In this document: positions 1 through 52,898 of the stretch, one piece after another
How positions within the stretch are numbered: position 1 is the first letter of the stretch
How the letters are laid out: the number at the start of each line of letters is the position of its first letter
Assembly (NCBI GenBank): GCA_963796955.1
Contig: CAWCNJ010000004.1
Location: 224,001-288,000, forward strand
Reading direction: 5' to 3'
Length of the DNA stretch: 64,000 nt
Source: Endomicrobiales bacterium
GTDB taxonomy: Bacteria; Elusimicrobiota; Endomicrobiia; Endomicrobiales; JALOBY01
Position numbers and translations under genes: made by a program
The notes under the pieces: generated by a model
The model's input: the letters and a program-made list of their open reading frames with translations, nothing else
Databases searched by the model: none
What the model was told of the DNA's origin: nothing

Positions 1-737
1 GCGGCGATACGCTGATGACCAACACCGGGAGCAGATATCTCCATCACCGGTTCCGGATAGGCCTGCGCTTTAAGTTCGGCCGGGCTGCCCATGGCGATAA
101 CAGAGCCCGCGCGCATCAGCGCTATCCTGCCGCATTGCTCCGCTTCGTCCATATAATGAGTTGTTACTATAACCGTTTTGCCTTTGCCTGCCAGGTTTCG
201 TATCAGTTCCCAGAATTTCGCCCTGACCGACGGGGAAACGCCCGAGGTAGGCTCGTCGAGAAAAATGATCGATGGGTCGTGCAGCAGGGTGGCCGCGAGG
301 GAAACTTGTTGTTTTATGCCGGAGGGCAGATCCCGGACCATGGTGGCTATGGGATAAATAAAACCTATGAATGAGAATAATTCTTCCATACGCTGCTTCG
401 CCAGGATCGGTTCCATACGGCGCAAGGACGCCTTAAAGGACATATTTTCCGCCACCGTAAGATCATCGTACAGCGTGAATTTTTGCGACATGTAACCGAC
501 GATAGATTTGATATCGCGGCCGTGGGCGGCACAATCCTGCCCGCCAACGCACACCGAGCCCGAGGTTGGCATAAGCAAACCGCACAGCACGCGAATAGTG
601 GTGGTCTTGCCCGCGCCGTTGGCCCCCAGAAAACCGAAGATCTCTCCCGTTGCGACAGAGAAACTCACGTTGTCAACGGCCGTGAAATCGCCGAACTTTA
701 CGGTTAATCCGTTCAGTTCTATCGCAGGACCGTTCAT
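1..737 (-). CDS. ABC transporter ATP-binding protein (3' end runs off window)
   Basis: Manual translation from ATG at 737 (ATGA overlap with the upstream stop): MNGPAIELNGLTVKFGDFTAVDNVSF...GANGAGKTT (Walker A)...FLDEPTSG (Walker B)...TTHYMDEAE. Open to position 1 and absent from the ORF track. Confidence 0.9.
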   Translation of the reverse strand, partial: MNGPAIELNGLTVKFGDFTAVDNVSFSVATGEIFGFLGANGAGKTTTIRVLCGLLMPTSGSVCVGGQDCAAHGRDIKSIVGYMSQKFTLYDDLTVAENMSFKASLRRMEPILAKQRMEELFSFIGFIYPIATMVRDLPSGIKQQVSLAATLLHDPSIIFLDEPTSGVSPSVRAKFWELIRNLAGKGKTVIVTTHYMDEAEQCGRIALMRAGSVIAMGSPAELKAQAYPEPVMEISAPGVGHQRIA

Positions 738-1453
738 GCTTTTGCCTTCTGTAGGAATATCTCGTCGAAACTGCCGGCAGCGGCATCCTTGAGCAGCGCG
801 CCCGGTTCGCCGTTGAGCAGTAGTTTTCCGTTGTCAAGAAAGTGCACTCTTGAGCAGCGTTCCGCCTCATCCATATACGCGGTTGAAACGATCACGGAAA
901 TGTTGTCGGCGATAAGCGCATAGAGCAATTCCCAGAATTCCCTGCGGCTTATGGGGTCGACCCCGTTGGTGGGTTCATCCAGAAGAAGTAATCCGGGCGA
1001 TTGCAGCAGCGTACACATCAGGGCGGTTTTTTTGTACATCCCGCCTGATAATTTTCCAACGGGTCTTTCCACAAAGCTTTCCAGCCGCGTTATGGCAAGC
1101 AGTTCCTGACGACGCTTGTGATACGCGTCCGCCGTCAACTGATAGAGATCTTTAAAGAACTCCAGGTGTTCGTTAATGGTTAGATCGGGGTACAAACTCG
1201 CTTTAGAAGGCATATAGCCTATTTTTGCGCGAATGTCGTTAAAGCGTGCAGGTGCGCCCTTAAAGGTATAATTTATTTTGCCGCTTCCTGCGTGCAGCAG
1301 CCCGGCCATGATGCGCATAAGTGTCGTCTTTCCCGCGCCATCGGGACCGATAAGCCCGTGCAGAAGTCCCGGCTCAAATGATACGGTCAGGTCGTTGAGT
1401 GCCGTGGTTTTATCGAATGTTCGATATAAATGTTCTGTTTCAATGCCTATCAA
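734..1453 (-). CDS. ABC transporter ATP-binding protein
   Basis: GPDGAGKTT, LSGGM signature, LLLDEPTNGVD, STAYMDEAE. Confidence 0.92.
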   Translation of the reverse strand: MIGIETEHLYRTFDKTTALNDLTVSFEPGLLHGLIGPDGAGKTTLMRIMAGLLHAGSGKINYTFKGAPARFNDIRAKIGYMPSKASLYPDLTINEHLEFFKDLYQLTADAYHKRRQELLAITRLESFVERPVGKLSGGMYKKTALMCTLLQSPGLLLLDEPTNGVDPISRREFWELLYALIADNISVIVSTAYMDEAERCSRVHFLDNGKLLLNGEPGALLKDAAAGSFDEIFLQKAKA

Positions 1454-2172
1454 GGCAGTTTCACCTCTACCGTCATGCCGGGTTTCATGAACCGGTCTGC
1501 ATTATTGAAATTGATCTTGACACCGTACACCAGTCTGGTGCGCTCATTGCGCGTCTGCACGTTCTTGGGGGTGAACTCGGCTTCCTCGTTGATCTTTATT
1601 ATGGTACCCGGTATGGTTTTCATGTTCGCTTCAGCCACGACGCCCTCCACCGTCATACCGGTTTTGATCTTCGCCAGACCATCATGCGCTACATATATAT
1701 ACGCCCATACGGTAGAGAGATCTTCCAGCATTAAAAGTTTTGTGCCGGGGTTCACCATCTCGCCGGGTTCATGGTACCTGGTGATCACGGTGCCTTCCAG
1801 CGGCGAAGAGATCGTACACCAGCTTAAGCGCACCATCGCGTCATCGTATTTAAATTTAAGCCGGTCGAAGGTTTCACGGTTCATCGAGCCGTCCGCCAGC
1901 AGCTGCACCGCCCGCCGGTAATCCCGCCCTGCGGCATCGGCGGCCACCCGCACGTCGTCGCCCGAGATGGAGACCAGCAGATCGCCTTTCTTTACGTTGT
2001 CGCCCTCCTGCACGGTCACCTTTTCGATGGTGCCCATCAGCCGCGATGACAACTCTACCGTCGTCGCTTCCACCGTTCCTGCATACAGGAATTGACTTCG
2101 CTTGCCGGCCACAAAAGCCACTATCCCCGCGAGCACCAGCACCGCAATAATGACCGGTATCCGTTTTTTCAT
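1450..2172 (-). CDS. HlyD-family membrane fusion protein
   Basis: N-terminal TM, lipoyl-like halves (VQEGDNVKKGD; SPLEGTV), AEFTPKNVQT motif; lies between TolC and ABC genes. Confidence 0.9.
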   Translation of the reverse strand: MKKRIPVIIAVLVLAGIVAFVAGKRSQFLYAGTVEATTVELSSRLMGTIEKVTVQEGDNVKKGDLLVSISGDDVRVAADAAGRDYRRAVQLLADGSMNRETFDRLKFKYDDAMVRLSWCTISSPLEGTVITRYHEPGEMVNPGTKLLMLEDLSTVWAYIYVAHDGLAKIKTGMTVEGVVAEANMKTIPGTIIKINEEAEFTPKNVQTRNERTRLVYGVKINFNNADRFMKPGMTVEVKLP

Positions 2173-3557
2173 TTTGTTGTTTCTCCTTCTTGTGTTGAAG
2201 CCAGTATCGCCTCGTTTATCAATAACTGTATCTGTACCCGTGCCAATTGCAGCTCGGCCTCAAGCACCTGGTAATTTGCAGTCTGTAATTCCAGATACGT
2301 AAGGGCGCCGGCCCGGTAAGACCGGTAGGATATGCCGGCAAGCTCACCGGCCTCCGATGCCGCCTGAGCCGCCATCGTCCGTTGACGCTTTAACGCTGTT
2401 AACTGGTCGTGTGCCTTTGCCCAGTCGCGGAAGAGGCCGCGCGCGATCTGTTCCCGCCTGGCCTGCGCTGAAAGCTCCTGAGAGCGATAGCCGGCAGCGC
2501 GATCTTTATCCGCATTACCTTCGAACAATGACCAGCTGAGGTTGGCGCCCAAGGTGTTCTGATTTATGGTTTCAAGCACCATGGTGTTCGGGTAATCTAA
2601 CGATGTCCGGGCGGTTAATTGCAGGCGCGGCCAGAAGGCTGCATCCGCTGCGGCCGCGGCGTAATGGGCGGATTCTATCAGTTTCTGCGCTTCCATCAGC
2701 GTCGGGTGCGCCTCCCATAATGTACCTTCGTCGTAGCGCGAGAACCGGGAAAGCAGGTCGTCTACCGGATCGATCTGGGTGATGATGTTCGGTTCAACGG
2801 TATCTTTTAATGTTAAACCGCTGACACGTTTGTCCAGGGGAATGCACGTTCCGGGCAGCGCCGGTGTGCCGCCCGTAAGCGCCGCAAGCTCGCGCAACGC
2901 GCCTGCCATATCAGCCTGGGCCCGGGTTAGCTGCTGCTGCCGTGAAAGCAGTTCCTGGTGCGCGGAAAGTTGATCGATGCGGCTTTTCGCGCCGGCCTTC
3001 ACCTGCTTGGTTATATCGTCGTACTGTGTGCCGGAAAGATTAACGGAGTTAGAAAGCACTACCAGTTGTTCGCTGGCCAGTGTAAGTTGAAAATAGAGGG
3101 TACGGCATACCAGCAGTTGCTGGCGCTTGACAGCCTCGGCTTCCTGCTCTTTTGCGTTTGCATCTGACATGGCGCTGCCGTAAGAGTTGCGTACGGCCCC
3201 GCCGTCAAAGGCTGTCCAGGCGAGTGTCGGACCGACAGAATAATTGGTGTTATCGCCAAGTTTTTGATCGATTGCCAGGGGACCGGCTTTTACATTGAGC
3301 TGGGGCACCACCGTAATGTAACGGTAACTGCCTTCTATGCTCAGGCGCGGATAGACCGGCCCGTGCAGAGCGTCGGCCCGGTAGTGCGCCGCCTTTGCGT
3401 CGTTGAGCGCTGCCTGATATTGAGAGGAATTTTCCAGCGTTAGCTTTTCCGTCTGTGCCAGAGAGACCATCACCGTCGCAGGTTCGGCCGCGTACAACGG
3501 CAGACTGATAACATTCAGCAGGGCGACCAGCACGGCTCGTTTTGAAGATGTGCGCAT
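2169..3557 (-). CDS. TolC-family outer membrane efflux protein
   Basis: Signal peptide, two OEP-like halves (YPRLSIEG; WPRLQLTA; YRAGALTYLEL), operon context. Confidence 0.88.
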   Translation of the reverse strand: MRTSSKRAVLVALLNVISLPLYAAEPATVMVSLAQTEKLTLENSSQYQAALNDAKAAHYRADALHGPVYPRLSIEGSYRYITVVPQLNVKAGPLAIDQKLGDNTNYSVGPTLAWTAFDGGAVRNSYGSAMSDANAKEQEAEAVKRQQLLVCRTLYFQLTLASEQLVVLSNSVNLSGTQYDDITKQVKAGAKSRIDQLSAHQELLSRQQQLTRAQADMAGALRELAALTGGTPALPGTCIPLDKRVSGLTLKDTVEPNIITQIDPVDDLLSRFSRYDEGTLWEAHPTLMEAQKLIESAHYAAAAADAAFWPRLQLTARTSLDYPNTMVLETINQNTLGANLSWSLFEGNADKDRAAGYRSQELSAQARREQIARGLFRDWAKAHDQLTALKRQRTMAAQAASEAGELAGISYRSYRAGALTYLELQTANYQVLEAELQLARVQIQLLINEAILASTQEGETTK

Positions 3558-3720: not shown

Positions 3721-3777
3721 AATTGGGAAGCACAGAATATCTAGTTTAATATGCGCAACTCCCCCCGGAGATACATA

Positions 3778-5187
3778 ATGGTATTGCAGAATGTTTTGTT
3801 ATCATTGCTTGGGTCTGCGTTTTTCCTGCTCTTATGCGCCGGGGCATATCTCTACGCCGGTCTGCGCCGTAAGAACGGTGCGCTGAAAGACTTAACCCTT
3901 CAACTGGAACAGAAATTAGTAGACAATACCCGGGAACTGTCGCAGACTATCAGCGACCTGAAGCGCAGCGAAAAGGCCAGAAAAGAATTTATCGCGGGCA
4001 TTACCCACGACCTGAAATCGCCGCTGGCGGTCGTTGTGGGCCACACCGAACTGATCAAGTACGCCGTTCAGCCGGGTTCCGACATGTGGAAGTTCTCTGA
4101 AAATATTTTCGCCTCGGCAAACCATCTAAGCCGCCTGGTAGACCGGCTTGTTTCCACCGCCCTGCTGGAGAGGGAAGAAAGACCCATCCTTGACCTCTAT
4201 GATTACGCGTTCTATGTCCGGACATTTTTCAATATGTTTCAGGATGCCGCCCGCAGGAAAAACATCCGTTACGAACTGGTCATAGCGCCCGAACCCATCA
4301 TTATACAGGCGGACATCACCCTGCTGGAAAGAACTCTTGCCAACCTGGTGCAGAACGCGTTTAAATTCACACCGGAAGGCGGCAGCATCACCATGCAGGT
4401 GCACAAGCAGGGCTCGCTCGTTTACACGCGGGTGATCGACACGGGCGTGGGAATCCCTGCCGACAAACTGGACCGGATCTTCGAGAGAGGTTTCCAGGCG
4501 AATGCCGATCATAAAGACCTTGGGTTCGGCCTTGGTTTGAACATTGTAAAAGAGACGCTGGTTAAACTTGGGGGCGACATAATCGCCACCTCCACTGAGG
4601 GAAAAGGCAGCACGTTCACGTTGTCGCTGCCGCTCCACGCAAACCAGCAGGCCGATGTGCAAAGGACGACGGCACGTATCCTCGGCGCCTCTACCGATCC
4701 CAAAGACAGCATTATTCCGATGCTGAAACAGGCGATCGAATCGGAATCAAAATATCCCGCCTTCAGGAACGATCCCAGGTCGTACGAAAACAAATCGCCG
4801 GAAAAACTTACGCTGATGCTTGTTGACGACACCCCGGGTCAGCTGTCGCTGACCATCGCCTCCCTGAGCAAAGACTTCAACCTGCTGATAGCGCAAAGCG
4901 GCGCCGAAGCTCTTGAAAAACTTGCGAAGCATAAAGGTAAGGTCTCAATGGTCCTCTCCGATATGAGAATGGACGGCATGTCCGGCCTTGACCTGCGCCG
5001 TGTATTAGCCGAGAACGTAAACTACAGCCACATCCCCTTCTTTATCCTGACCGCATACGCCAATGATGACGACGCGCTTAAGTCTTACAAGATAGGCGCA
5101 TTCGAATATCTCTCAAAACCCGTAAATTCTTACATATTGAAAGAACGCATCAACCTGTGGCTGAATAAGACACAGGGGCATTGCTGA
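3778..5187 (+). CDS. Hybrid histidine kinase / response regulator with a single N-terminal TM
   Basis: H-box ITHDLKSPL, N-box NLVQNAFKF, DTGVGI, GFGLGL, C-terminal REC (LVDD, LSDMRM, LTA, KP). Start set at ATG 3778 after GGAG. Confidence 0.9.
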   Translation: MVLQNVLLSLLGSAFFLLLCAGAYLYAGLRRKNGALKDLTLQLEQKLVDNTRELSQTISDLKRSEKARKEFIAGITHDLKSPLAVVVGHTELIKYAVQPGSDMWKFSENIFASANHLSRLVDRLVSTALLEREERPILDLYDYAFYVRTFFNMFQDAARRKNIRYELVIAPEPIIIQADITLLERTLANLVQNAFKFTPEGGSITMQVHKQGSLVYTRVIDTGVGIPADKLDRIFERGFQANADHKDLGFGLGLNIVKETLVKLGGDIIATSTEGKGSTFTLSLPLHANQQADVQRTTARILGASTDPKDSIIPMLKQAIESESKYPAFRNDPRSYENKSPEKLTLMLVDDTPGQLSLTIASLSKDFNLLIAQSGAEALEKLAKHKGKVSMVLSDMRMDGMSGLDLRRVLAENVNYSHIPFFILTAYANDDDALKSYKIGAFEYLSKPVNSYILKERINLWLNKTQGHC

Positions 5188-5262: not shown

Positions 5263-6807
5263 ATGGTCAATCGATCAAAGCAACGCGTAGAGATCACGGT
5301 AGACGCCGGCATGAAAGTACGTTGTCTGAACCAGCCTAACCTGGCCGGAAATGTGATACTGGTAGACGTGTCGATCAACGGTATGAGCCTGATCGCCGGA
5401 CACCCTCTCGAAAAAAAAATAGATGCCGAAATACAATTGCCGGACAGGTATGTAACCAAAGGTATAGCATGTAAGTTCTCCGTGAAAGCGGAACTTATGT
5501 GGATGAGGTATAGCGAGAATGATAAAACATATATACATGGTTATAGATTTGTAACCCTGGACGAAATAGCAGAGCGCTGCCTGGCCATGCTCATTGAGTA
5601 TGAAATAGAAGAGGACAGGAAATCACTGAAGCTGTTGATACCCAAAGAGCGGCATGACAACTATACAAGGAGCGCCATTAAGGACCGGCTCCAGTGGCTT
5701 TCACACAAAACAAAAACAGGTTTTGCGCATATTCCGCGATTCTCCGTAGATCCCGCCACTTACAAGGGTAATGTTGAAAATATGATCGGAGTCTGCCAGG
5801 TGCCACTGGGGATAGCCGGTCCATTAAAGATTAATGGACAGGAAGCACGTGGTGAATTTTATGTTCCGCTGGCAACAACAGAAGGCGCGCTCGTCATGAC
5901 CTACGATTTAGGAATGCGGCTTATCACAAAGTCTGGTGGAGCCACTACCAAGGTGATACGAGATGCAATACAAATATCTCCGATATTTCACATAGGACGC
6001 ATGTCAAAATCCGATGAGTTTAGCGAGTGGATAAATAAGAATTACGCGACGGTTAAAGATAAGTTCGAAGGGACAACACACCATGGAAAACTCATTAGTG
6101 TAGTGCCCGTTACAATAAACTCGCATGTTGTGGTCAAATTTACTATGTTCACAGGAGATGCACAAGGTCTAAATATGATAAACCGCGCCGTACGCGAGGC
6201 GTGTGAATATATCTCACAATCGACGGGTTACTCCTATATCCAGCGCGCTAATTATTCAGGTATAAAGAAAGTAAATATGGATAATATCTTTAATGGTTTG
6301 GGTAAATCTGTCGTTGCAGAAGTGACAATACCAAGGTCGATACTGAAACTATTGCGTGTGACACCTGAACAGGTGTGCGCATACTACAATAACTGCTTGC
6401 TGGCAAGTGTGTATTCGGGAATGATAGGTATGAATGCTCATGTTGCAAATGCCCTCAGTGCAATATACATTGCATGTGGCCAGGATGTCGCTGACATTCA
6501 TGTTTCTAGTATCGCATACATATCTTATGAGATGACGGAATCTGCCGACCTGTACGCCAGGCTGTATATACCTAATCTTCTCGTTGGTACTGTCGGTGGG
6601 GGGACATCGATCGGCACTCAGAGGGAATGTTTGGAAATACTGGACTGCCATGGTTCCGGAAGATCAAAGAAATTTGCCGAAATTGCCGCGGCATCAGCTT
6701 TGGCAGGTGAAATCACCGTTGTTGCTGCACTAATAAATGGCGAGTATGTTGGAGCACATGAAAAGTACGGTAGAAATAAGACCAAGCATTTGAAGGCGGT
6801 CGCTTGA
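5263..6807 (+). CDS. PilZ domain fused to class I HMG-CoA reductase-like enzyme
   Basis: N-terminal RSKQR and DVSING (PilZ RxxxR, DxSxxG); then ENMIG, LATTEG, GDAQGLNM, GQDVA, GTVGGGT, LAGE and C-terminal His (GAHEKYGR). Confidence 0.85.
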   Translation: MVNRSKQRVEITVDAGMKVRCLNQPNLAGNVILVDVSINGMSLIAGHPLEKKIDAEIQLPDRYVTKGIACKFSVKAELMWMRYSENDKTYIHGYRFVTLDEIAERCLAMLIEYEIEEDRKSLKLLIPKERHDNYTRSAIKDRLQWLSHKTKTGFAHIPRFSVDPATYKGNVENMIGVCQVPLGIAGPLKINGQEARGEFYVPLATTEGALVMTYDLGMRLITKSGGATTKVIRDAIQISPIFHIGRMSKSDEFSEWINKNYATVKDKFEGTTHHGKLISVVPVTINSHVVVKFTMFTGDAQGLNMINRAVREACEYISQSTGYSYIQRANYSGIKKVNMDNIFNGLGKSVVAEVTIPRSILKLLRVTPEQVCAYYNNCLLASVYSGMIGMNAHVANALSAIYIACGQDVADIHVSSIAYISYEMTESADLYARLYIPNLLVGTVGGGTSIGTQRECLEILDCHGSGRSKKFAEIAAASALAGEITVVAALINGEYVGAHEKYGRNKTKHLKAVA

Positions 6808-8942
6808 TAAAGTATTTCCTATTCGGTTGTTATTTAAATAGCTTGGTCAGCGCTCTAGTGGCTGTATTTGTACTTATAAAAGCGCCGTCTAAAAAAATAA
6901 ATGTGCTATGGTGCTTGTTTGGCATCAGCGTTGCACTATGGAGCCTCGGTCTGGGAAGAATGTCATGTTCAGTAGATCAACGAACCGCGACCTTCTGGCT
7001 CGAAAAAGTACATTATCTTGGCGCCATATTCATCCCGACTCTCTTTCTCCATTTCGTACTTGCGATGACGAAAATGGATAATGATAAACGTGGAAGGCTC
7101 ATAATATTATCGGCCTACATATTCTCAGTGACTATGCTTGTTGCTAACTTCAGCCATGCACTTGCTACAGTAGTTCCCAAGGAACCTTTCAATTATTACA
7201 CATACCCCGGGCCTTTATACAATGCATTTTCTGTCGGTTTTTTTGTATACATAGTTTATTCTCTTTACGTGCTGTATCACGAATATAAGCATCTTTCAGG
7301 AATAAAAAGGAACCAATTTAAATATCTGTTTTTTGGTATGGGTGTCGGATTCGCGGGTGGATCGACTGCATTCTTTCCAGTGTATAATATTCCGATCCCG
7401 CCGGTCGGTATTATATTCGCATCATTGTATATTGCGATAGTATCGTATGCCATCGTAAAATATCACCTGCTGGATATCAAGGTCGTCATCACCAGAGCGA
7501 GTATGTTTGTGGTTGTGTATGCATTCGTGATGGGCATACCTTTTTTCCTTTTATATCATATAAACTCGCAAATTTTGACATTGATAGTTGCCATGGTTTT
7601 AGCGACCATCGGTCCTATCTTGTATCGCAAGCTTCAGCAAAAATCTGAAAACCTGCTGCTTGCAAAACAGAGGGAATATCAAAAGCTGTTGCGTAATGTT
7701 TCGAAGGAAATGCTCAGGGTTCGCGATCTTGATAAGTTGCTTCCGTATATTGTGGAAAGCGTTACCAATGCGGTCAATCCGGAGTTTTCCGCTATATATC
7801 TGGCGCATGAAGGGGAATACGTTTTAAAGGCGTGGCGCAAGGTCAATCCCGAACCGGCGTACAGCTCTATTTCTGCCGGTCATCCCATGATAAAAGTGCT
7901 TAAGAACGTGGGCCCCATTGTTTTTTATGATGAAATGAAGGAGAATATATCTGAGATCGCCCTTCCGCTTCATTTATTGATCTCTCTTAATGTCGATAAC
8001 CGGCTGGTGGGCATATTGCTGCTGGGCAAGAAGATGGACGGCGATATGTACAGCAGCGATGACCTGGATGTATTCGAGATACTGGCGCGCCAGGCGGCTC
8101 TGGCCATAGATTATTGCATGTTCAATAAAGAGTTCCAGAAGAACGAACGAAAAATCTACGGCGATGAACTGCGTGCCAGCGTTACCGGCATGGCGAAAAC
8201 CGTGGCGCACCAGATGGTCAATCAACTCAGCAAGTTCTCCATGCCGGCGCAGTACCTTAATATGGAGTTCGAAAAGTTCCTTGAAGAGAATGCAAGCCTC
8301 GTAAAAGCGAACCCCAATTTGAAAGAGGCGATAAATAACGTTTTTAAAGTTTCAGGCGAAATAGAGATCAACGTGCAAAAAGCGCGTAACATGCTTGATA
8401 AGATGAGCTATTTCGTTAAATTCCAATCCGAAATAGCGCATGCGCACGATTCTTTAGATATAAAGCCGTTGATGGATATGGCCATGAATGAGGTACGTAA
8501 TAAACATTCCCTGCGCGATATACAAATTAACATTTCGATCCCGGAAGGCGCAAGAATATACGGCATAAAATCCATGGTTTATGATACCTTATACAATCTG
8601 CTGGATAATGCGTACGATGCGGTAGAACATAACGCCGAGGCCCGTTCCCAGAAAGAAATAGCTGAACCATATATTCCGTCGATAACTATTGCGCAATTGG
8701 ACCATGCGGACAGGGCGGTTATCTCCGTCACTGACAACGGCATCGGGATGAACGGCAAGATCTACGATAAGGTATGTAATCCCTTCTTTACCTCGAAGTC
8801 GTCTGCCACCGCTTCGATAGGAATCGGACTGTATATGGTTAAGTGCATGGTCGAAGAGATACATAACGGCAAATTATGGTTTGAATCTGAATACGGTGTG
8901 GGCTCGGTCTTTTATGTGTCGTTCCCTCACCGCAAGGCTTAA
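6804..8942 (+). CDS. Membrane sensor histidine kinase (HisKA_7TM-like N-terminus, GAF, HATPase)
   Basis: Multiple hydrophobic segments ending YAIVKYHLLDI; GAF (LLLGKK...YSSDDLDVF); H-box VAHQMVNQL; NLLDNAYDA, DNGIGM, PFFTSK, GIGL. TTG start overlaps the upstream stop. Confidence 0.88.
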   Translation: MIKYFLFGCYLNSLVSALVAVFVLIKAPSKKINVLWCLFGISVALWSLGLGRMSCSVDQRTATFWLEKVHYLGAIFIPTLFLHFVLAMTKMDNDKRGRLIILSAYIFSVTMLVANFSHALATVVPKEPFNYYTYPGPLYNAFSVGFFVYIVYSLYVLYHEYKHLSGIKRNQFKYLFFGMGVGFAGGSTAFFPVYNIPIPPVGIIFASLYIAIVSYAIVKYHLLDIKVVITRASMFVVVYAFVMGIPFFLLYHINSQILTLIVAMVLATIGPILYRKLQQKSENLLLAKQREYQKLLRNVSKEMLRVRDLDKLLPYIVESVTNAVNPEFSAIYLAHEGEYVLKAWRKVNPEPAYSSISAGHPMIKVLKNVGPIVFYDEMKENISEIALPLHLLISLNVDNRLVGILLLGKKMDGDMYSSDDLDVFEILARQAALAIDYCMFNKEFQKNERKIYGDELRASVTGMAKTVAHQMVNQLSKFSMPAQYLNMEFEKFLEENASLVKANPNLKEAINNVFKVSGEIEINVQKARNMLDKMSYFVKFQSEIAHAHDSLDIKPLMDMAMNEVRNKHSLRDIQINISIPEGARIYGIKSMVYDTLYNLLDNAYDAVEHNAEARSQKEIAEPYIPSITIAQLDHADRAVISVTDNGIGMNGKIYDKVCNPFFTSKSSATASIGIGLYMVKCMVEEIHNGKLWFESEYGVGSVFYVSFPHRKA

Positions 8943-8951
8943 GGAGCGCTG

Positions 8952-10119
8952 ATGAACGAAAATACTCAGATACAGGTGCTTGTTGTTGACGACGATAAAA
9001 GTTTGTGTGAAACTACCGCCGCGCTTATAAACGCCGGGAATGGGTATCATGCGGAGTACGTGCAGTCCGGTTCTGGAGCGCTGCACTATTTGGACGAACA
9101 TCCAGACACCGATATTGTTTTGCTGGACTTCAACCTGGGACCTGACCAGATGAACGGTCTGGATGCGCTTATGCAGCTAAAAAAGCAGAACAGCCGGGCG
9201 CAGGTTATCATGCTTACCATTGAAGATACGCTCACGACAGGGATAGCCTGTATGAAGGCGGGCGCCTTCGATTATCATGACCAAGCCGTTCCATATTAAA
9301 GTCTTCGACGAAAAAGCAAAGACCGCGCTGGAAAAACAGCGGGCTCACGAACTTTCTGAAAGCGAAAAGAATGCCATGATCGCCGGTATGGCGGAAGGAT
9401 TATCCCACTCTATCAATAACAGGTTGAGTGATTTCTCTCTTTCATCCAGCGTCCTGATCCTTGAGATCGAAAAGATGATGGAGTGCGGTTTTCGCGGGAT
9501 CGAAGGCAATCCCGAGGTGAAAAGATCGATGGATAATATCTTGAATGTGGCCTACGGCATCAGCAACAATGTCGTCAAGACGGCGGGCATCGTTCGCGGC
9601 ATTGCGAATTACGCACGTATGAAAACAGAAGGGCGCTCGAACGATTATTTTAGTTTTGAAGACAGCGTGGAAGCCGCTCTCAGGGTGCTGCGGGTTAAAG
9701 ACGGTATCGGGGATTTTCCACTGGAGGTATCGGTGGTCGGCGGCATGACGGGGAACATCGCGGTGTTGACCGAAATACTGATCGCGTTGCTGGAAAACGC
9801 GTATGAGGCGACTCAAGAGAAGGCGAATCTTGGTTCCGGCGGATATTCGCCGCACATAAAACTTTCCTTCTCAAAAGAAAAAGATACGATCACGCTGCAG
9901 GTTACCGACAATGGCATCGGCATAAAAGAGGATGTAACGCATAAAATTTACGCGCCGTATTTTACCACAAAAGCATCGGCAAGGAATTATATCGGCAGCA
10001 GTCTGTTCATGGTTAAAAAAATGATAACGGAAGAATACAACGGGCGGATCCTTTGCAGCTCGGAATCGATGAAGGGAACTGCTATACTTATAGAGATACC
10101 TGATAATGGGAGACATTAA
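8952..10119 (+). CDS. REC-histidine kinase hybrid, split by a +1 indel near 9276
   Basis: REC ends GAFDY then an extra C precedes MTKPF (ttcgattatCatgaccaagccg). The downstream frame has SHSINNRL, ENAYEA, DNGIGI, PYFTTK. Confidence 0.8.
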
Positions 10120-10468
10120 GTCAGTACTTATCATAGACGATGTTGAAGGGTTGAGTTATTATCTGGCCAGGACCTTTGAACGGGCCGGCGTAAAACCTTA
10201 CGAAGCCCGCGGCGGCGAGCAGGGCATACGGTTATTCAGGGAGGCCGCCCCGGACCTTGTTCTGCTGGATATGCATTTGCCCGATATGAACGGACTGGAT
10301 GTGCTGTTGAAGATCAGGGAGCTTGGTCCCGCGGCCCGAGTCATGATAATGTCCGGTGACGCCGGACTTGTCGCCCAGCTGAGGCAGACAGTCCCCGCGA
10401 TAGAATTTGTTGACAAACCGATCGACATGCGGGATCTTTTCGAAAAACTTGGACTTTCGCACAGGTAG
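10106..10468 (+). CDS. Single-domain response regulator (REC)
   Basis: IIDD, LLDMHLPDMNG, MSG, DKP. Confidence 0.9.
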   Translation: MGDIKSVLIIDDVEGLSYYLARTFERAGVKPYEARGGEQGIRLFREAAPDLVLLDMHLPDMNGLDVLLKIRELGPAARVMIMSGDAGLVAQLRQTVPAIEFVDKPIDMRDLFEKLGLSHR

Positions 10469-10499: not shown

Positions 10500-10946
10500 A
10501 TGGATGAACACACTGAAGCCGGTCAAAACGATTTTGGAGGCAGGCGCAGCGCGCCGCGGGCCTTTGCCAACGACCTGCTTTGCAAAGTTTCGACCGTCGA
10601 TATTCCCAATAGCGTGCATGCCAATATTTTAAATATCGGCACCTACGGCCTTATGGTGGCCCTTAAACTTAAACTTGCATCGGCCATGCCGGTTATAGTG
10701 AATATTTTCCTGCCGGTGCCGTTCGGCGAAATAGCATTAAAAGGAACCGTTTCCTGGGTGGCGAAAGAACAGGAACATTATGTGTGCGGGATTGATTTCA
10801 CTGAAAATGATGAGGACGGCAATCTGGCAACGATGAGGAGATACGTGACCAACGTCATCAAGGACACGAATATTGTCGAACGCAGGAAAAGCCGCGGGCG
10901 TGGCGCAAAAGTATCGGTGGAACGAAGGGCCAAGCGCCCCCGCTGA
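10500..10946 (+). CDS. PilZ domain protein
   Basis: RRSAPR (RxxxR), NIGTYG, beta-barrel tail (GTVSWV...CGIDF); AAGGAGG RBS. Confidence 0.8.
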   Translation: MDEHTEAGQNDFGGRRSAPRAFANDLLCKVSTVDIPNSVHANILNIGTYGLMVALKLKLASAMPVIVNIFLPVPFGEIALKGTVSWVAKEQEHYVCGIDFTENDEDGNLATMRRYVTNVIKDTNIVERRKSRGRGAKVSVERRAKRPR

Positions 10947-10973: not shown

Positions 10974-11003
10974 AAGCCGCTTTCTTCACGAAGGCGGTTT
11001 TTT
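10974..11003 (+). terminator. Intrinsic terminator after signalling cluster
   Basis: CCGCTTTC-ttcac-GAAGGCGG stem followed by a T run. Confidence 0.65.
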
Positions 11004-11102: not shown

Positions 11103-11825
11103 ATGCGTAAAATAGTCTATTCGATAATACTGCTGTTAATTTCTATAGTGCCGGTATATGCGGGCGGGACCGACCTGAGTTTGTGGGGCGGTTACGCGAC
11201 GTTCGCCATGAATGATGTTAATAATTTCCTCAAAGACAGCGTGGGGTCGGGCGGATCCGTTACAAAAGTAAGCGATGGCTATCTCTTCGGTGCTGATGCG
11301 TTGTTCCAGGTTAACGGAGCGCCCATGCTTTGGCTTGGTCCCCGCGTAGAGTACCTGGGCTGTACCCGGGGTAAGGCCTCAAATGCGACCGTGGATCTTA
11401 AGGAAGATCAGTACCTTATCCCTATCCTGGTCGGTGGAAAATATCAGCTGGCTGAAAGCGGCAAGTTCGGGCTTGATGGGAAGGCCTTCCTCGGAGTCGG
11501 TCTTGGGTATGCGACCACTAATTCTACCAGTTATTCCGGCACGGGTTTTGTAGGAGAATTGGGCGTCGGCGGAACATATAAAGCGTCAAGTGTCATCAGT
11601 ATTGGCTTGGACGTGGGCTATCGGTTCGCCGATCTCGGTTCGATGGGTTCCGGCGGGTATGGAAGCAGCAGCAGTAGCACCGGCACCGGGACGGGCACGG
11701 GGACTACGTATGCGAAAGGACTTAACAACACACCGCCTTTGGTAAACCCGGTCACCGGCTCCAATGTTAAGTATGATTTCAGCGGTATGATCTTGAATCT
11801 TGGCGTAACGTACCATTTTAAATAA
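11103..11825 (+). CDS. Outer-membrane beta-barrel protein (OmpA/OmpW-like)
   Basis: Signal peptide, alternating amphipathic strands, C-terminal GVTYHFK, internal S/G/T-rich loop. Confidence 0.7.
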   Translation: MRKIVYSIILLLISIVPVYAGGTDLSLWGGYATFAMNDVNNFLKDSVGSGGSVTKVSDGYLFGADALFQVNGAPMLWLGPRVEYLGCTRGKASNATVDLKEDQYLIPILVGGKYQLAESGKFGLDGKAFLGVGLGYATTNSTSYSGTGFVGELGVGGTYKASSVISIGLDVGYRFADLGSMGSGGYGSSSSSTGTGTGTGTTYAKGLNNTPPLVNPVTGSNVKYDFSGMILNLGVTYHFK

Positions 11826-41238: not shown

Positions 41239-41736
41239 ATGAAAAAGAGTATCATTTTCATTGTTCTCACATGTTTTTTTATGTCACAGTTACCTGTCTT
41301 TGCGCAACAGGCGGGTACGGTTTTTAAGCGCTCGTCCACGCTTTCTGCCCTATTCGATCCATTCTGTCTTGTAAATAATGCCTCGCAGGATGATGTTCCC
41401 TTAACCTCGCAATACCGTGTTCCTCCAAAATCCGGTCATGATCCGGTTGAAAATACCGCTCTGATCCAGGAATTCAGCTCGCTCGTTCGCATGACTTCTC
41501 AGGTAGGATCTGCTTATAATAGTTCGAAGTTTTGTCTATGGAATTTGTTCGCGCTTTCGGATCCATCACCCCCGAATACTCCATGGAGTGTAGATAATGG
41601 GGGATTATGTCTTATACTGCTAGCCTACATAGTGCTCCTTCACCGGAGTAATTTGCCCTGGCGTATCATGAACGCTCAGGCCTCAGTTAGTTATGTCCCG
41701 ACCCTACGACTTACTCAGGGCCGGGTTTTTTTATGA
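41239..41736 (+). CDS. Signal-peptide-bearing leader ORF directly upstream of the giant gene
   Basis: Signal peptide MKKSIIFIVLTCFFMSQLPVFA, late hydrophobic segment followed by HRSNLPW; stop overlaps the giant-gene ATG (ATGA). Confidence 0.6.
   Translation: MKKSIIFIVLTCFFMSQLPVFAQQAGTVFKRSSTLSALFDPFCLVNNASQDDVPLTSQYRVPPKSGHDPVENTALIQEFSSLVRMTSQVGSAYNSSKFCLWNLFALSDPSPPNTPWSVDNGGLCLILLAYIVLLHRSNLPWRIMNAQASVSYVPTLRLTQGRVFL
41697..41732 (+). terminator. Terminator-like hairpin plus U7 immediately before the giant-gene ATG
   Basis: CCCGACCCT-11 nt-AGGGCCGGG then TTTTTTT, ATG at 41733. Confidence 0.65.
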
Positions 41737-44700
41737 ATAAAATAATTTCCATTATCATCCTGGCTTGTTTTACTCTTACTTCGGTGGGCGGGCAAGCGCT
41801 GAATGCCGCCGCTGCCGAACTGCGCGCGCCGGCAGCTTCCAGGCCGATAGCGCCGCTTTTCGATGTGGTCATTCCGCAGGAATTTGGGCGTATCACAGAC
41901 GGCGCCCTGGCATCATCCGGACAAAAACAAATTGTTATCAATATTCAGGACCTGCATTGCAACCCGGAAGTACAGAGAAATATCTCCAGCATCCTTGAAC
42001 AGCTGGAAAAGCGATACGGGCTTTCCGCAGTTTATGTGGAAGGCGGTTACGGCAATATTGACACATCCTGGCTGTGCAACATGTCGAACGAGGCAACTAA
42101 GAAGAACATCGCTAATGCACTGGTAAGCGGCGGGCGGCTTACCGGAAGCGAATATTATTCGGTCACGGCCAACAAACCTCATTTGTTAAAAGGTCTGGAA
42201 GATGAAGCTGTCCATAAAGCAAACATCGTGCGGCTTGGCGAGATAATTAAACGAAAAGAAAGTGTCGGGCGTATATTAAAAGAAATGGAACATGAGCTTT
42301 CGTACATGGAAGCGAACGACTGCTGTCGCCAAAGCCGGAAATTCAACGAAACTGTGCAGCAGCATACCGCCGGCCGACTGTCGACCGAGAATTACTACCG
42401 GCTACTGCAGGGGTATGTCGAAAAAGTCTCCGGCAAACCAAAGAACTACCATGCTTTAGGAAACATTCGCATGGCAGACTTCCCAACATTAAAGGCATAC
42501 ATCGAACTTACGCACATTGCCAAGGACCTGAAGTACAAAAATATATCCCGTCAGCTGCGCCCTTTTATGCAGGTCGTAAAATCCAACATTTCGTTCATGG
42601 AATACAACGATCTTTCCGATAAAACCGATAACTTTTCAAGAACGAACGAGCTCTATTTTTATCTCGGCGCCATAGCTCAAAACCCTCGCATTGCGCAGCA
42701 GTGCCGGCCCCGCTACCCGGAGCTCTACACTTTTTTTGACTACACCGCCAGGAACAGACAGATAAACCCGCTAAGCCTCATCACAGAGGAAAAGCGTTTG
42801 ACCGAAGCATTACGCATAGCCTTCGCCCAAAACACCCCTGACCTGGAGGTTTCCTACCTCGCTGATTTCATGGTGTATTTTAAACAATACCTCTCCGGCA
42901 GTATAGCCGCCGACGATTATCAATATGTAAGCAGGCAGCTACCGGCATTCGTGAAAACATGGAAAGATCATTCGATCACCGGCCGCATCGACACCCTTTC
43001 AGATGACCTTGACCGGGTAAAAGAGTATTACGATACCAATTGCCGGCGAAATGAATGTTTCTTGACAAACGCGAACATCGCACGGAGCCCATGTTCATCA
43101 CTTGCCTGCATCCAGGATGTCCCTCCTGATGCATTGTCTCGTGCGTTGAAATCCTCACAACTTACCGTCATGGTTACCGGCGGCTTTCACTCTGAAGGAT
43201 TGAAAGCTCTGCTGCAAAACAAGGGCATAGCCTACATAACGATCACGCCCAATGTGACATTAGATACCGACCCCGCAAAGCAACTATACGAAATGCTCGC
43301 GCAACAGCAAGCTAAAACCTTCGCCAAACAATCCCTGGCCCTCGCCCTCGGCTCCACCAATGCCAAAGTCATTACCTCCGGCAACGACAAGTTCGTGGTA
43401 GAACTGAACGACGATCAGGTAACGTTGATAAGAAAAGGAGAGGGTTTTGTCATCTCCGGGTCATCGGTCCGCCGCGGCGGAAACTCAGCGCGCAGTTCTG
43501 CCGTAACGAGCGGCGTTAAAGAAGCCCTTGCCATCACGAATAAATTTCTCCACACAGAAAGCCTCATGTTAAACCCCGCTCTCAGTGCTGAACTTATTTA
43601 TCAGCTGGTAAAAACCTTCTCGCTCTGGTCCGCCCGTGAGGGGATCTACACCGGCAACGGGTTAATATGGTCCATTGCCACGGATCCTGCAGTGCAGGAT
43701 ATTATTAACACCAGGGAGGGAGTCACTCTCGAAGATTTGAACCAGCTCCCGGATATCATCCAGCGGCTCACAGCCGGCCATGCATCACAACCAACAATTG
43801 ATGCCCAGGTTGTTGTCTGTGCATTAGCGATATTACAAGAAAAAACTGCTCATGGGGCCACTGGGGTCGGGTCTCACAGCGAACAGAAAATTTCTTCGGC
43901 TGATAAGGGAGGTTCTTACGTAGACTTTAAAATTGGGTCACGTAAGTTCAGGATAATGCACGCGGACGGGGTAGTAAAAAGTAATTATTATGGGGACTTT
44001 ATGGTTGAAAGTGCCCCGATGATTGTTGAGGACCTTAAAAGAAGAGGAAACAAACTGAAACGGGTTTTTGAAGTGGGTTCCGGCAAAGGTGCAATGATAA
44101 CAGCTTTCGGGCTGCTTACCGGCGATGATACAAAACTGATAGGCATAGATATAAACGATAAGGCTGTCGCTTTAATTAAACAAAACGTCACGCTCAACGG
44201 TTTGGAAAACAAGGTAAAGGTTAAGAAAGGTAACGTAATAGATGACTGGGACACCGAGGGGCCGGTGGATCTGATTCTTGCGGACTTTCCTATGATCCCG
44301 GTTGACCCGGTAAAATACAAAAGCCAACTGGATGAACAGGCTTTTAAAGAGATTAACGGCGGCGCCGATGGAAGATATTATACGGATATGATAATTCGCA
44401 GGGCTTCGAGATATCTTGCAGATGATGGAGCAATTGCCATTGTCCAGCCGGATTTTAACGGAGTCGAAAAAACCTTGAAACTGCTCAACGAAAATGGTTT
44501 TGAAGCACATGTGATAGCTAAAAAAAAGCAGTACCTGGATGAAACCACTTTTACTAGAAATAACAAGGACTATATAGAAGGATTGGGTAACGATTATCGT
44601 TTTGCCACAGACGAAACTGGTCGATTGTACTTCAATATAGTAATAATTGAAGGCATAAAAATAAAAACTGGGGCATCTGGGGCCGGGACTCAATCGATAA

Positions 44701-47700
44701 GTGGGGCCAAGTCTCAACCGTTGATAGATAAAGATACAGGGGAGACCTTTAACTATAAGCCTCATCAGAAAGCTTTTAGTAGTATAAAAGTCGGTGGTCA
44801 TAAACCGAAGCTAAGCGGAACAGTGGTGTCTGTTCTGTATCCGTCAACGACAATAGATGGGATGAAGGTAAAAACTTTTAAAAGTGATGGTCCTTCCGGA
44901 AGCATGAGAATTGCACAAGGTGTATATGATTTCGCGATTTACGATGCTGATAGTGACGAATATTTGGTCAGCGATGGGTTCTGGCAAAATTTCCGGAATG
45001 CGGGTGAGCATGGCGCTTTGCTGCGTTTTGCAAGGAAGAAGCAACGGTGGGAGGCCGCTAATAAAGAAGCAGTTATAGGATACGGGGAACAACTTAAGTA
45101 TGAAATAGATGCGATCAGGCGCAGCAAAACAAATATTGATTCGTGGACCGACGATGAAAAAGGGCTGATTCCCGAGGCTGCTATGATGGAGAGATGTAGA
45201 CGTCTGCTTGGAAATTCTGTGGTAACCGCTACATCTGAAAACCGGAGCACGAATGCTAAACTCGTTGACATGCCACGCACCAGTAATGCTCAATTCGTTG
45301 CCGGTTTGCAACAACGTATATCGAATCGCACTTCATTAACCGTTAATGAAGGCGAAAAAATTATTCGTGAATTATTGGCATTGCGTACCGATAGCAGCGT
45401 ACGAAGGAATAAAATTGATCAACTTATAGAATCAGTTTTGAAGATCATGGTCCGTGAAGGTGAACAACAACCTCTTTTTGCTCCTATACCGTATGCACAC
45501 AAGATCGCATTTCGTGATGATCTTTTGGATAGGTTTGGATTGTTATTTGCGCTTATTTCAGAGACTGACAGCAATGGAACATACGCATGTAGCGGCTCAT
45601 TTATTAAAATGGTCATGGACAGGCCCTCTATTGATGGGAAAATACGTGTGCTGCTGACACTACGAAAAAAGGTGCTGAGCGGTGAGCTCCATAAGATTTC
45701 GGAAAGCATAAGTCTGATCCGTAGTCTGCGCGCGCTTGAGTCCGGCCGTCCCATTACAAGTATCTATCTTACTAGTATGATAGAACAGGTTTTAAAGGAT
45801 ACAGTCCGAGATGATGGGGTAAGGCTTTTTGCCGATGGACAAAGAACGGTAGCTACCGCGGGTTTATATGCAAACAAGATTGCTTTGCGCGGGGATGTTG
45901 ACAAAAGGATCGATCTGTTGTTTATGCTCATAAGTGAGCCGGATGGAAAAGGTGGTTATGAATTCAGCGATTCGTTCATTGATATCGCCATGAATGACGC
46001 TTCGCTGGACAGCAAGACACGTGCATTGTTGTCATTAAGGAAAAAGATCGCTAACAGCGGCTCGTTTGAGGTCTCTGAAAGCATGGGGTTGATCCGAGAA
46101 CTGCTTGCGCAGGTGTGCGAACGGCCAATTTCAAAAGTTTATCTTACCCCGCTTATCGAACAAGTTTTAAAGCGAACTGTCCGCAGTGATGGGGCAATGG
46201 TATTTTCTGCGGATATATACCCTCTCCACATAGCACGAAAAAAGGATTTATCGGACAAGATAGATATTCTGCACTACCTATTGAACGCAAGGGATGAGCA
46301 CGGCGTATATACTTATAATCAAAGTAAAATACTTCAAATGCTTAACAGGGATACTGCCGAGTTAAAAGATGCCATGACAAAACAAATTACATCATTTGCC
46401 ATGATCTCTCAATTGAAAAAAGAAGTTCAGAGCCGGGATACAATTGATGTGACGGCTGCCGAGAAGTACATTCGGCGCGCATTGTCGGTTGTTGACGGCA
46501 AAAGTATTGTTAGACCGAGGGTTACGCCAATATTAATGGAGATTCTGGACAGATTGGCGCGCGACGGTGAAAAAGTATTCGCCGGCAGCCGGTATTACAG
46601 CCGCCATCTCGCGGGTAACATTGAGTTGCAGAACTTAGACAACTTTGTACGGTTGGTCTCAGAAAAAAAGCGGGGAGGGGGGTATCAACAAGCCGAGGGA
46701 ACCAGCAAGTATACAGGTTCATACATATACAAGATAATGATGCATATTCCTGACGGCAGCAGGATCAATCAATTGCGGGACCTGGAGCAGGAGGCAACGG
46801 AGTCGGCAACATTAACTGTCGGCGAAGGGATGAACCTTGTTCGCCGTATTCTGGGTATGGTTGATGGGCGTAACATAAATCGTAAACAGGTCAGCCGGGT
46901 TTTAGAAACTATATTTGCGAAGATAGAACGTAATGAAGTCATGCTGCCTCGATACGCCAGGTTGCTAAGTGGAAAGTACGATATAGCGGATGTTCTAGAT
47001 GCTATTCAAACGATGTTGTCACTAAAGGACCTATCCGGACGTTATGTGTTCAGTAACTCCTTTATTACAACGAACTTAATAAAGGATGATATTGCTTTAA
47101 GGCAGGTCATTGCGGAGAGATATCATAAAACAATTACCGCTCAGCTGCAGCAGATAAGCGATATATCAGTCGAAAATGGTAATAGTGCGATCCATAGCCT
47201 TCTGCTATCAGTCGTTGGTACGATTATTAGTCGGGACCAGATTGAGCCATACGTTGAAAGTATTCTCTCAAAGATGATGCGTGATGGTCAGCGAATATTG
47301 CTTGCACAGAACAGCCAGGTCTTTGCACAAAGAGCCGATCTGTTGGATGTTCTTGATATATATGAAAAGATAGCCTCTGCGCGCGATGTAAATAATGAAT
47401 ATATATTTAGTAAGGATGAAATCAACGGCCTTCTTACTGAAAGACAGGGTTCTGCACCAGAAGATTTGAAACGAGAGTACTGTCAACGTGTGATCGCAGT
47501 TACAGAACGTCAGATCCCTACTCTGCACCCGGTTGATATGCAGCTGGGGATGCAGATTGTTTCTCAAATTGCAGACTCATATGAAATGTACCCACAGAAA
47601 TTTGAATGGGGACATCTCAAACTGGTGATAAAGGATATTCTTGCCCATATCACTCGGAACAATGAGCTCGTTTTTGTTGATGCTCAGCAGCTAAATGAAA

Positions 47701-52196: not shown

Positions 52197-52898
52197 TCGA
52201 AACCTCACTGGAGCTGGCGCTTTGCGCCGAAGGTGTGAAGCATTTCGTTGCCGGTAACGTGCAAAAAGCGGCCGGGTTGTTAGCGCGGGCAATAGCAGAG
52301 AAAAATCCATTCGTGCCGTTTGCTCAAAGAAGGTTAATGAACACTCAACGTCGAGGTCGCACCCAAACTTGAGGCGCTGAAAGCCAAATTGCGACAGACA
52401 CCGGGCTTCCCGTCGGAGCTGATCGATAAAATCCAGGTTTATGACCGCGCCGGGCCGGAGAATGACGAATGCTGGATGTACACGGGCGAAGGTAGTATTG
52501 GCTTTACCACCATTGAGCTTGGGGAAAAAGACGGCGAAACCATTACCGCCATTCCCATCTCTGCCGGCCTGCTGGACGGGAATATCTTTAGCCTGGAGGA
52601 ACAGGCCGCCGCTATAACACACGAACCGCATGCCCTAACCTGGCGCAAGGCCAATCGGATCAAAGGTAAACTACCCGCCACCGATGAAGGTTATCATAAA
52701 TATCTGGGGAAGAAAGCAGAGGCTGATAAAGCGACTGAAGAAGAAAAACTTGAAGCCGCCCTGATGGATAGGGTCAAGCCAATGCTTGATCGCGAAGTAA
52801 CCAGCCTGCCTTTTGTTATTTCAAAAGAAATAGCGGAATACTTTCCCGGAGTTGAACTCGCAGAAGGAGCTGTAAGTTCGTTGGGCGAAATATTAGGG
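52178..52898 (+). repeat. Internal HE-module copy 2 (spans the frame break)
   Basis: QSLGIVIETSL (52100 frame) continuing into DRAGP...AITHEP...PATDEGYH...EYFPG (52389 frame); DNA similar to copy 1. Confidence 0.9.

Follow-up and report, generated by a model that had tools for sequence, protein, structure and literature searches.

Introduction

The closest described parallels to the locus reported here pair a signal enzyme with a membrane histidine kinase. In the CqsA/CqsS and LqsA/LqsS systems of alpha-hydroxyketone sensing, an acyl-thioester-consuming enzyme is encoded beside such a kinase. The phcBSRQ operon of Ralstonia includes the methyltransferase PhcB, which forms 3-hydroxy fatty acid methyl esters, and the diffusible signal factor (DSF) system of Xanthomonas, RpfF/RpfC/RpfG, joins a fatty-acid-derived cue and a membrane kinase to cyclic di-GMP (c-di-GMP). 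We describe here a gene pair of comparable layout in a 64,000-nucleotide stretch of an Endomicrobiales genome from the phylum Elusimicrobiota (contig CAWCNJ010000004.1, positions 224,001 to 288,000; hereafter the window). This genome measures 2.1 Mb, at a completeness of 81%. The first gene (5263..6807, + strand, 514 amino acids (aa)) encodes an FcrA-like reductase of the class I 3-hydroxy-3-methylglutaryl-CoA (HMG-CoA) reductase (HMGR) fold with an N-terminal PilZ domain, and the second (6804..8942, + strand, 712 aa, TTG start) encodes a membrane sensor histidine kinase. On balance we favor the view that the pair is a lipid-signal synthase-receptor cassette, and we infer its product, its ligand and its control by c-di-GMP from sequence.

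The likeness to the CqsA and LqsA systems lies in an acyl-thioester enzyme with an adjacent membrane kinase, and oxoamine synthases occupy the same position in related loci (L308, L334 and L340). The window's enzyme is, however, an HMGR-fold NADPH reductase rather than a pyridoxal-phosphate-dependent oxoamine synthase and carries a presumably regulatory PilZ domain, and its sensor differs from CqsS and LqsS in combining HisKA_7TM with GAF. Like the phcBSRQ operon, the locus groups the gene of a putative fatty-acyl signal enzyme with those of a membrane kinase and of receiver or hybrid proteins, and PilZ-methyltransferases occur in the enzyme slot of relatives. This comparison is one of layout, not of homology to PhcS, and the predicted chemistry is reduction rather than methylation. 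The Rpf system shares the proposed combination of lipid cue, membrane kinase and c-di-GMP, with HD-GYP outputs in the relatives L006 and L098, but its enzyme fold and sensor domain are different, and the predicted target of c-di-GMP in the window is the synthase.

The enzyme class is already known. FcrA is an HMGR homolog that reduces acyl-CoA of C14 or longer to the alcohol with NADPH (Grossi et al. 2025, PMC11948995, on parts of which we draw throughout); its catalytic residues are intact, L862 is replaced by a bulky residue, and a wax synthase is often absent from its hosts. PilZ, kinase and signal have no match in the main text of that study, although a PilZ fusion may be among the fused domains of its Fig. 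4B. The literature searched, outside which subscription papers mostly lie, yielded no account of a dedicated HisKA_7TM sensor joined to an FcrA-type enzyme under PilZ or receiver control. An earlier, sequence-only reading of this DNA knew of no described system of this type, which holds for the pairing and fails for the enzyme; with the enzyme class and the autoinducer-type layout both known, it is their combination with a HisKA_7TM sensor that appears to be new.

Conservation of the enzyme-sensor pair

The reductase stop codon TGA (6805-6807) overlaps the sensor start codon TTG (6804-6806), so that four nucleotides (nt), TTGA, are shared. The overlap with a multi-transmembrane GAF kinase had been read correctly from the sequence, and the domain order of the sensor is HisKA_7TM-GAF-HATPase_c.

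Related loci were drawn from genomes and metagenomes (80 each, the best 80 of about 590 in either case), from plasmids (six loci) and from three phylum searches, in which 5/401 Elusimicrobiota, 19/401 Omnitrophota and 14/401 Nitrospirota genomes were positive (two of the Nitrospirota matching PilZ only). Duplicates (L004 and L019) and fragments below 200 aa were excluded. A FastTree phylogeny of 202 enzyme domains contains a clade of 53 rows (support 0.91), here called the sensor clade, in 36 of which a gene with the seven-transmembrane (7TM) domain lies downstream of the enzyme. None of the 148 rows outside the clade has such a gene (26 of them lie near a contig end). Co-occurrence with such kinases had been set beforehand as a test of the sequence-only reading, and it is observed. 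In subclade B the sensor is present in 26 of 28 rows, the others being one contig end and one row without it; in the non-actinobacterial part of subclade A it is present in 10 of 13 (one duplicate, one contig end, two without). The sensor starts at most 300 nt from the enzyme in 34 of the 36 paired rows. These neighbors served to build the 7TM profile, and Pfam independently called HisKA_7TM in nearly all of those scanned (L238 fell below threshold). The pairing is real, conserved and clade-specific.

The outputs of the paired sensors vary, ranging over simple kinases, hybrid kinases, HD-GYP proteins (L006 and L098) and split genes. A FadL gene is found within 3.5 kb of 6 of the 35 distinct coupled loci and of none of the 148 rows outside the clade, and an acyl carrier protein (ACP) gene accompanies 5 of the 35. 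The cassette is patchy, with only the five positive genomes among the 401 Elusimicrobiota, and was not found in a 99%-complete genome of the same family.

Several further arrangements were seen among the relatives. Two to four HisKA_7TM genes cluster around the reductase in L223, L224, L227, L230, L179 and L098, as if several related ligands were read. Broken reductase copies in L233 and L232, with stops or split open reading frames (ORFs), still adjoin ACP and 7TM genes. A large sister branch of the reductase in Acidobacteriota (L008, L021, L034, L089, L134 and others) is accompanied by FabF, ACP and a desaturase-like flavoprotein, has no sensor and is apparently a biosynthetic cluster. We rejected the wider HMGR-like family as a signaling family: in its other branches the neighbors are FabF/ACP and desaturase-like genes, DUF3419 clusters or genes of CoA metabolism.

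Structure and kinship of the reductase

The catalytic domain of the reductase (aa 138-504, 5674..6774, + strand) matches Pfam HMG-CoA_red with an E-value of 3.5e-104. Its AlphaFold2 model (pLDDT, the predicted local distance difference test score, 93) matches archaeal and human HMGR, and the sequence is 38% identical to archaeal HMGR. In alignments to the human and archaeal enzymes E207, K335, D408 and H499 correspond to the catalytic residues E559, K691, D767 and H866, and the NADPH loop DAQGLNM is intact. The HMG pocket is rebuilt, with I238, R328, I334, N377 and Y495 in place of R590, S684, D690, K735 and L862; the assignment of N377 to K735 may shift by one with gap placement, and no Lys is adjacent. 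A control HMGR from a Streptomyces mevalonate cluster (L170) keeps all five pocket residues in the same alignment. We take R590 and D690 to bind HMG and R568 to bind CoA. The roles of S684, K735, L862 and the catalytic residues are those given in PMC11948995, whose Lys795 we take as K735. R568 is lost in the window's reductase and in most of clade B, is kept in all 148 rows outside the sensor clade, and is also absent from an actinobacterial branch beside wax synthase; together with the ACP and FabF neighbors of some loci, its loss hints at acyl-ACP as the donor. The catalytic Glu and Lys are kept in 28/28 clade-B rows and the Asp in 27/28, with one gap.

Judged by this pocket and by its genomic context, the reductase is not a mevalonate enzyme. 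Its TIGR00533 score is 307 bits, below the cut-off of 442, and it is the sole PF00368 match in the genome. The lack of mevalonate genes noted in the window by the sequence-only reading extends, for HMG-CoA synthase, to the genome at its 81% completeness. On the choice between the mevalonate and the methylerythritol phosphate (MEP) pathway, also raised there, the genes found (DXR and IspG) are those of MEP. No HMG-CoA synthase was found in any of five Elusimicrobiota carriers, namely the window's genome and four that are 98-100% complete, by a search whose control missed two archaeal genomes. The four near-complete carriers hold 11 GHMP kinases, of which the ten classified are four IspE, four ThrB and two HddA-like, and none of these ten reached the mevalonate kinase cut-off. 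In the window's genome no GHMP kinase was found, not even IspE, so this particular absence is uninformative.

The enzyme has much in common with FcrA as described in the parts of PMC11948995 used here: the class I HMGR fold, the four catalytic residues, an aromatic residue at L862, the replacement of S684 and K735, hosts without a mevalonate pathway, and variable N-terminal domains. It differs from the Natronomonas pharaonis FcrA in having Arg (R328) rather than Glu at S684, and from FcrA more broadly in the additional loss of R590, D690 and R568. Its kin differ in the PilZ or receiver fusions, in the dedicated sensor gene and in that no wax synthase was found in carriers. The window's reductase shows the residue diagnostics of FcrA, yet with a pocket signature of its own.

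In the tree, which was built without characterized FcrA sequences, the reductase groups with non-mevalonate bacterial homologs, some of them beside wax synthase/diacylglycerol acyltransferase (WS/DGAT) genes, and apart from the one Streptomyces outgroup. An actinobacterial branch nested in the sensor clade shares I238 and R328, and in two of its loci, L045 and L108, the enzyme adjoins a WS/DGAT gene; fatty-acyl reduction is therefore compatible with a pocket of this type. Of 31 sensor-clade genomes, most of them incomplete assemblies, none gave a WS/DGAT match, against 10 of 10 control genomes hand-picked as likely positives. The enzyme probably makes a fatty alcohol. Since FcrA makes alcohols of C14 or longer, a long-chain lipid is likelier than the small alcohol or aldehyde signal first proposed; the synthase-sensor layout behind that proposal stands.

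The PilZ module

The PilZ domain (aa 4-111, 5272..5595, + strand) matches Pfam with an E-value of 1.4e-6, above the cut-off, and carries both c-di-GMP-binding motifs, RxxxR as RSKQR at aa 4-8 and DxSxxG as DVSING at aa 35-40. The genome contains six GGDEF matches. The fusion to an HMG-CoA_red domain, already recognized from the letters, is not a chance event, since 35 of the 120 best homologs share the two Pfam domains, and both motifs are present in 23 of these 35. As a constant feature, however, it does not hold: 62 of the 120 have no N-terminal extension, while two carry a receiver and two a thioesterase domain. In a term search, HMG, reductase and acyl have no match in a PilZ survey (10.1101/814665).

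The membrane sensor and its covariation with the enzyme

The sensor consists of a HisKA_7TM domain (aa 13-225, 6840..7478), a GAF domain (aa 308-436, 7725..8111, by Pfam) and an HATPase_c domain (aa 592-710), all on the + strand; the kinase part, from the putative phospho-acceptor His469 in an atypical H-Q box through HATPase_c, spans 8208..8933. Pfam HisKA has no match in the sensor; His469 is invariant in 27/27 aligned relatives and the ATP boxes are present. Among NCBIfam models the sensor is closest to PrsK (TIGR02916), the kinase of the PEP-CTERM system, with a match that runs through its full length (aa 31-708). The match is consistent with a similar membrane-GAF-kinase layout, but reaches 60 bits against a cut-off of 300, and no PrsR or exosortase gene was recognized among the scanned neighbors.

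AlphaFold2 predicts a seven-helix bundle for aa 1-250 (pLDDT 92), which is the candidate ligand-binding part. The best VIA-align matches of this model are G-protein-coupled receptors (GPCRs), led by ADGRL3 (Z 16.9, rmsd 4.0 over 216 residues), with Z still 11.8 at rank 50. Foldseek gave no match at an E-value of 0.001 or better, its best being 1.4e-3 and all GPCRs. As helical bundles score high by arrangement, the resemblance shows neither function nor ancestry. An ESM Atlas search with the 7TM part returned HisKA_7TM clusters and one unnamed cluster only. A complex prediction of the enzyme with the cytoplasmic part of the kinase scored 0.00 and is used as evidence neither way. Outside the window, the genome holds a second HisKA_7TM kinase, of PAS type, after a FadL-family gene and with no enzyme adjoining (L164, 6557-10371), a candidate listen-only receptor.

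Divergence of the two partners was compared in 19 enzyme-kinase pairs, those of the 35 coupled loci with a full kinase in the alignment; kin among them are not independent. Enzyme distance correlates with 7TM distance at rho 0.64, and at 0.48 in 14 de-duplicated pairs, a value reached in 4/1000 shuffles. The correlation is only 0.12-0.13 with HATPase, which is equally diverged, and 0.09-0.18 with GAF. The 7TM domain is the part of the sensor tied to the enzyme, although some of this signal could come from linkage alone. Some Nitrospirota sensors (L235, L236, L248, L249, L290 and L291) carry the 7TM domain twice in tandem. Their second copies group with one another, while the first copies are spread over different groups, largely according to partner enzyme, with L248 as an exception.

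Other enzymes in the same slot

Other enzymes replace the reductase directly upstream of such kinases, a point that the sequence-only reading had proposed to check. In Nitrospirota, where 50/151 genomes carry 7TM, we took 20 high-scoring loci without the reductase and found an upstream enzyme in 11 and none in nine. These are five PilZ-LuxD-type acyltransferase-methyltransferases (four scanned), three PilZ proteins with a methyltransferase-like part (one matched PilZ only), and one each of an aldehyde-dehydrogenase-family enzyme, an acyl-ACP-reductase-like enzyme and an oxoamine synthase accompanied by two FadL genes. A PilZ-diiron oxidase occupies the slot in L248 and a PilZ-ketoacyl-ACP synthase (KAS) III in L249. 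In Elusimicrobiota, where 51/201 genomes carry 7TM, the slot holds an enzyme in 21 of the 27 loci examined: eight aldehyde-dehydrogenase-like (five scanned, three by near-identity), seven radical S-adenosylmethionine enzymes (five with a B12 domain), two of aminotransferase/oxoamine-synthase type, and one each of an acyl-ACP-reductase-like enzyme, a thioesterase, a methyltransferase and a flavin oxidoreductase.

CqsA-like and PhcB-like types are among the slot enzymes, which are not all clearly lipid enzymes. Because the loci were picked by similarity to coupled receptors, these fractions cannot be extended to HisKA_7TM as a whole. A diffusible product is the simplest account of so many unrelated enzymes with one receptor type. 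A conserved aldehyde-dehydrogenase-family gene lies directly before 7TM kinases in L331-L333, L338, L339, L341-L343 and L297; it occurs in the bacterial order to which the window's genome belongs and in one Nitrospirota genome, at 44% identity.

Genomic surroundings

The neighbors of the pair are signaling genes on the same strand, as had been noted from the sequence. A kinase-receiver hybrid (3751..5187, +) lies 75 nt 5' of the reductase; it is part of the window's locus and not a constant member of the cassette. Downstream of the sensor follow a receiver-domain ORF (8952..9299, +), a soluble histidine kinase ORF (9277..10119, +; 29.5% identical to the kinase part of the sensor), a single-domain response regulator (10106..10468, +) and a stand-alone PilZ protein (10500..10946, +), after which a terminator-like hairpin is found at 10974-11000. 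The receiver ORF stops where the kinase ORF begins in another frame, within the usual receiver end motif; the two are probably parts of a single receiver-kinase hybrid gene that a one-base frameshift near 9277, either real or an assembly error, has broken up. GC content is 0.42 at 6001-8000 and about 0.5 in the remainder, and a promoter scan of the locus gave weak matches only (9/12).

Beyond the hairpin lies an outer-membrane beta-barrel-like gene (11103-11825) with a paralog elsewhere in the genome. At the start of the window a divergent operon (3-3557, - strand), judged from sequence to encode two ABC ATPases with membrane-fusion-like and outer-membrane efflux-like proteins, is a possible exporter close to the cassette. 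The window further contains two giant ORFs of 3487 and 3049 aa (41733-52196 and 52389-61538), the first with methyltransferase, GlnD-like nucleotidyltransferase, glycosyltransferase-like and HAD domains. Elsewhere in the genome (L310, 7047-10475) genes for an NAD-dependent reductase, an oxoamine-synthase-like and a GNAT-like protein stand in a row, resembling a sphingolipid-type cluster.

Discussion

As a synthase-receptor cassette the locus would operate as follows. The enzyme would use NADPH to turn a long-chain acyl thioester, either acyl-ACP or acyl-CoA, into a fatty alcohol, much as FcrA does. The alcohol would partition into the membrane and bind the GPCR-like 7TM domain of the neighboring sensor, whose kinase would signal through the downstream receiver and hybrid proteins, with an HD-GYP domain as output in some relatives. 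Binding of c-di-GMP to PilZ, or receiver phosphorylation in other members, would gate synthesis and close a feedback loop. The FadL channels beside some members could carry the lipid across the outer membrane and so make it a cell-to-cell cue. More tentatively, and as a possibility that we do not yet lean towards, the cassette may be one dialect of a modular, hitherto undescribed lipid-signaling family in Elusimicrobiota, Omnitrophota and Nitrospirota, in which GPCR-fold 7TM receptors co-vary with interchangeable lipid synthases; here the fatty alcohol made by the HMGR-fold enzyme would be a cell-to-cell signal and its synthesis directly gated by c-di-GMP.

Several observations weigh against the cassette as we picture it. 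The sensor is missing from L221 in clade B, from L096 and L097 in clade A and from all 12 actinobacterial rows of subclade A (three at contig ends). In 6/28 clade-B rows Phe replaces the catalytic His. PilZ is an optional module, seen in the 35 of 120 homologs only. No FadL gene adjoins the window's own copy of the reductase, and ACP and FabF are also neighbors of rows outside the clade (12/148 and 43/148). The covariation with the 7TM domain weakens to 55/1000 shuffles when the comparison is reduced to nine distant pairs and may reflect physical linkage, because the 7TM part is the one nearest to the enzyme gene; a single clade of FcrA-coupled receptors was also rejected, as they fall into several groups with at least 9 label changes (27 when shuffled). 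Finally, His469 is followed by Gln in the window's kinase and in L177, L005, L219 and L222, and by Glu in most aligned relatives. A Gln following the phospho-acceptor His can impair autokinase activity.

The alternative that survives best, although we think it unlikely, is internal lipid control: the fatty alcohol would serve a membrane lipid such as an ether lipid, and the sensor would monitor the lipid or membrane state and feed back through c-di-GMP or phosphorylation. Ether-lipid roles have been proposed for FcrA outside wax synthesis (PMC11948995, in part), and a lipid cluster with an oxoamine synthase and a reductase lies elsewhere in the genome (L310). Long-chain alcohols diffuse poorly, as is established chemistry, and FadL is missing from 29/35 coupled loci. 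Internal control of this kind fits less well with the patchy distribution described above, with a slot that holds enzymes of very different products, or with direct neighbors that are signaling rather than lipid-assembly genes.

It is improbable that the enzyme instead processes an incoming lipid, with FadL taking up a fatty acid of environmental, host or prey origin and the reductase either turning it into the true ligand or removing the signal. The position of FadL beside 6/35 coupled loci and before the genome's second, enzyme-less 7TM kinase would suit such a scheme, as would the use of imported fatty acids by the Natronomonas FcrA (PMC11948995, in part). Both the ACP, FabF and FabG-like genes adjoining L084, L098, L217, L232 and L233 and the loss of R568 point rather to endogenous acyl-ACP, and the condensing enzymes of the same slot are biosynthetic types.

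We give still less weight to the enzyme as a co-sensor that binds acyl thioester, NADPH or c-di-GMP and contacts the kinase directly, with catalysis secondary. Structurally unrelated slot enzymes are better explained by a diffusible product than by a single docking surface; the catalytic Glu, Lys and Asp are retained in clade B as described, and the 62 of 120 homologs without an N-terminal domain also speak against it. Translational coupling, the lost His in the six clade-B rows and the ability of PilZ domains to bind signaling proteins, for example MapZ-CheR (10.1101/814665, in part), are the points in its favor. An ordinary HMG-CoA reductase that makes mevalonate and lies beside signaling genes by chance is hardly credible: it would accord with the sole PF00368 match, the 38% identity to archaeal HMGR and the automatic names, but not with the lost HMG-binding residues, the sub-threshold TIGR00533 score, the DXR and IspG genes, or the failure to find an HMG-CoA synthase in the five carriers or a mevalonate kinase among the classified GHMP kinases.

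If the synthase-receptor reading is true, FcrA enzymes without a wax synthase, whose role was left open by their describers, would gain a function. Fatty alcohols would join bacterial signal chemistry, and c-di-GMP control would be placed on the signal synthase. HisKA_7TM is listed as a sensor domain only (in the part of PMC5847659 covered here), so that an adjacent cognate enzyme offers a direct route to its first ligand. By its predicted structure the sensor would be a bacterial receptor in which a GPCR-like, possibly lipid-binding fold is joined to a kinase, and the cassette would provide a testable handle on communication in phyla that are mostly uncultured.

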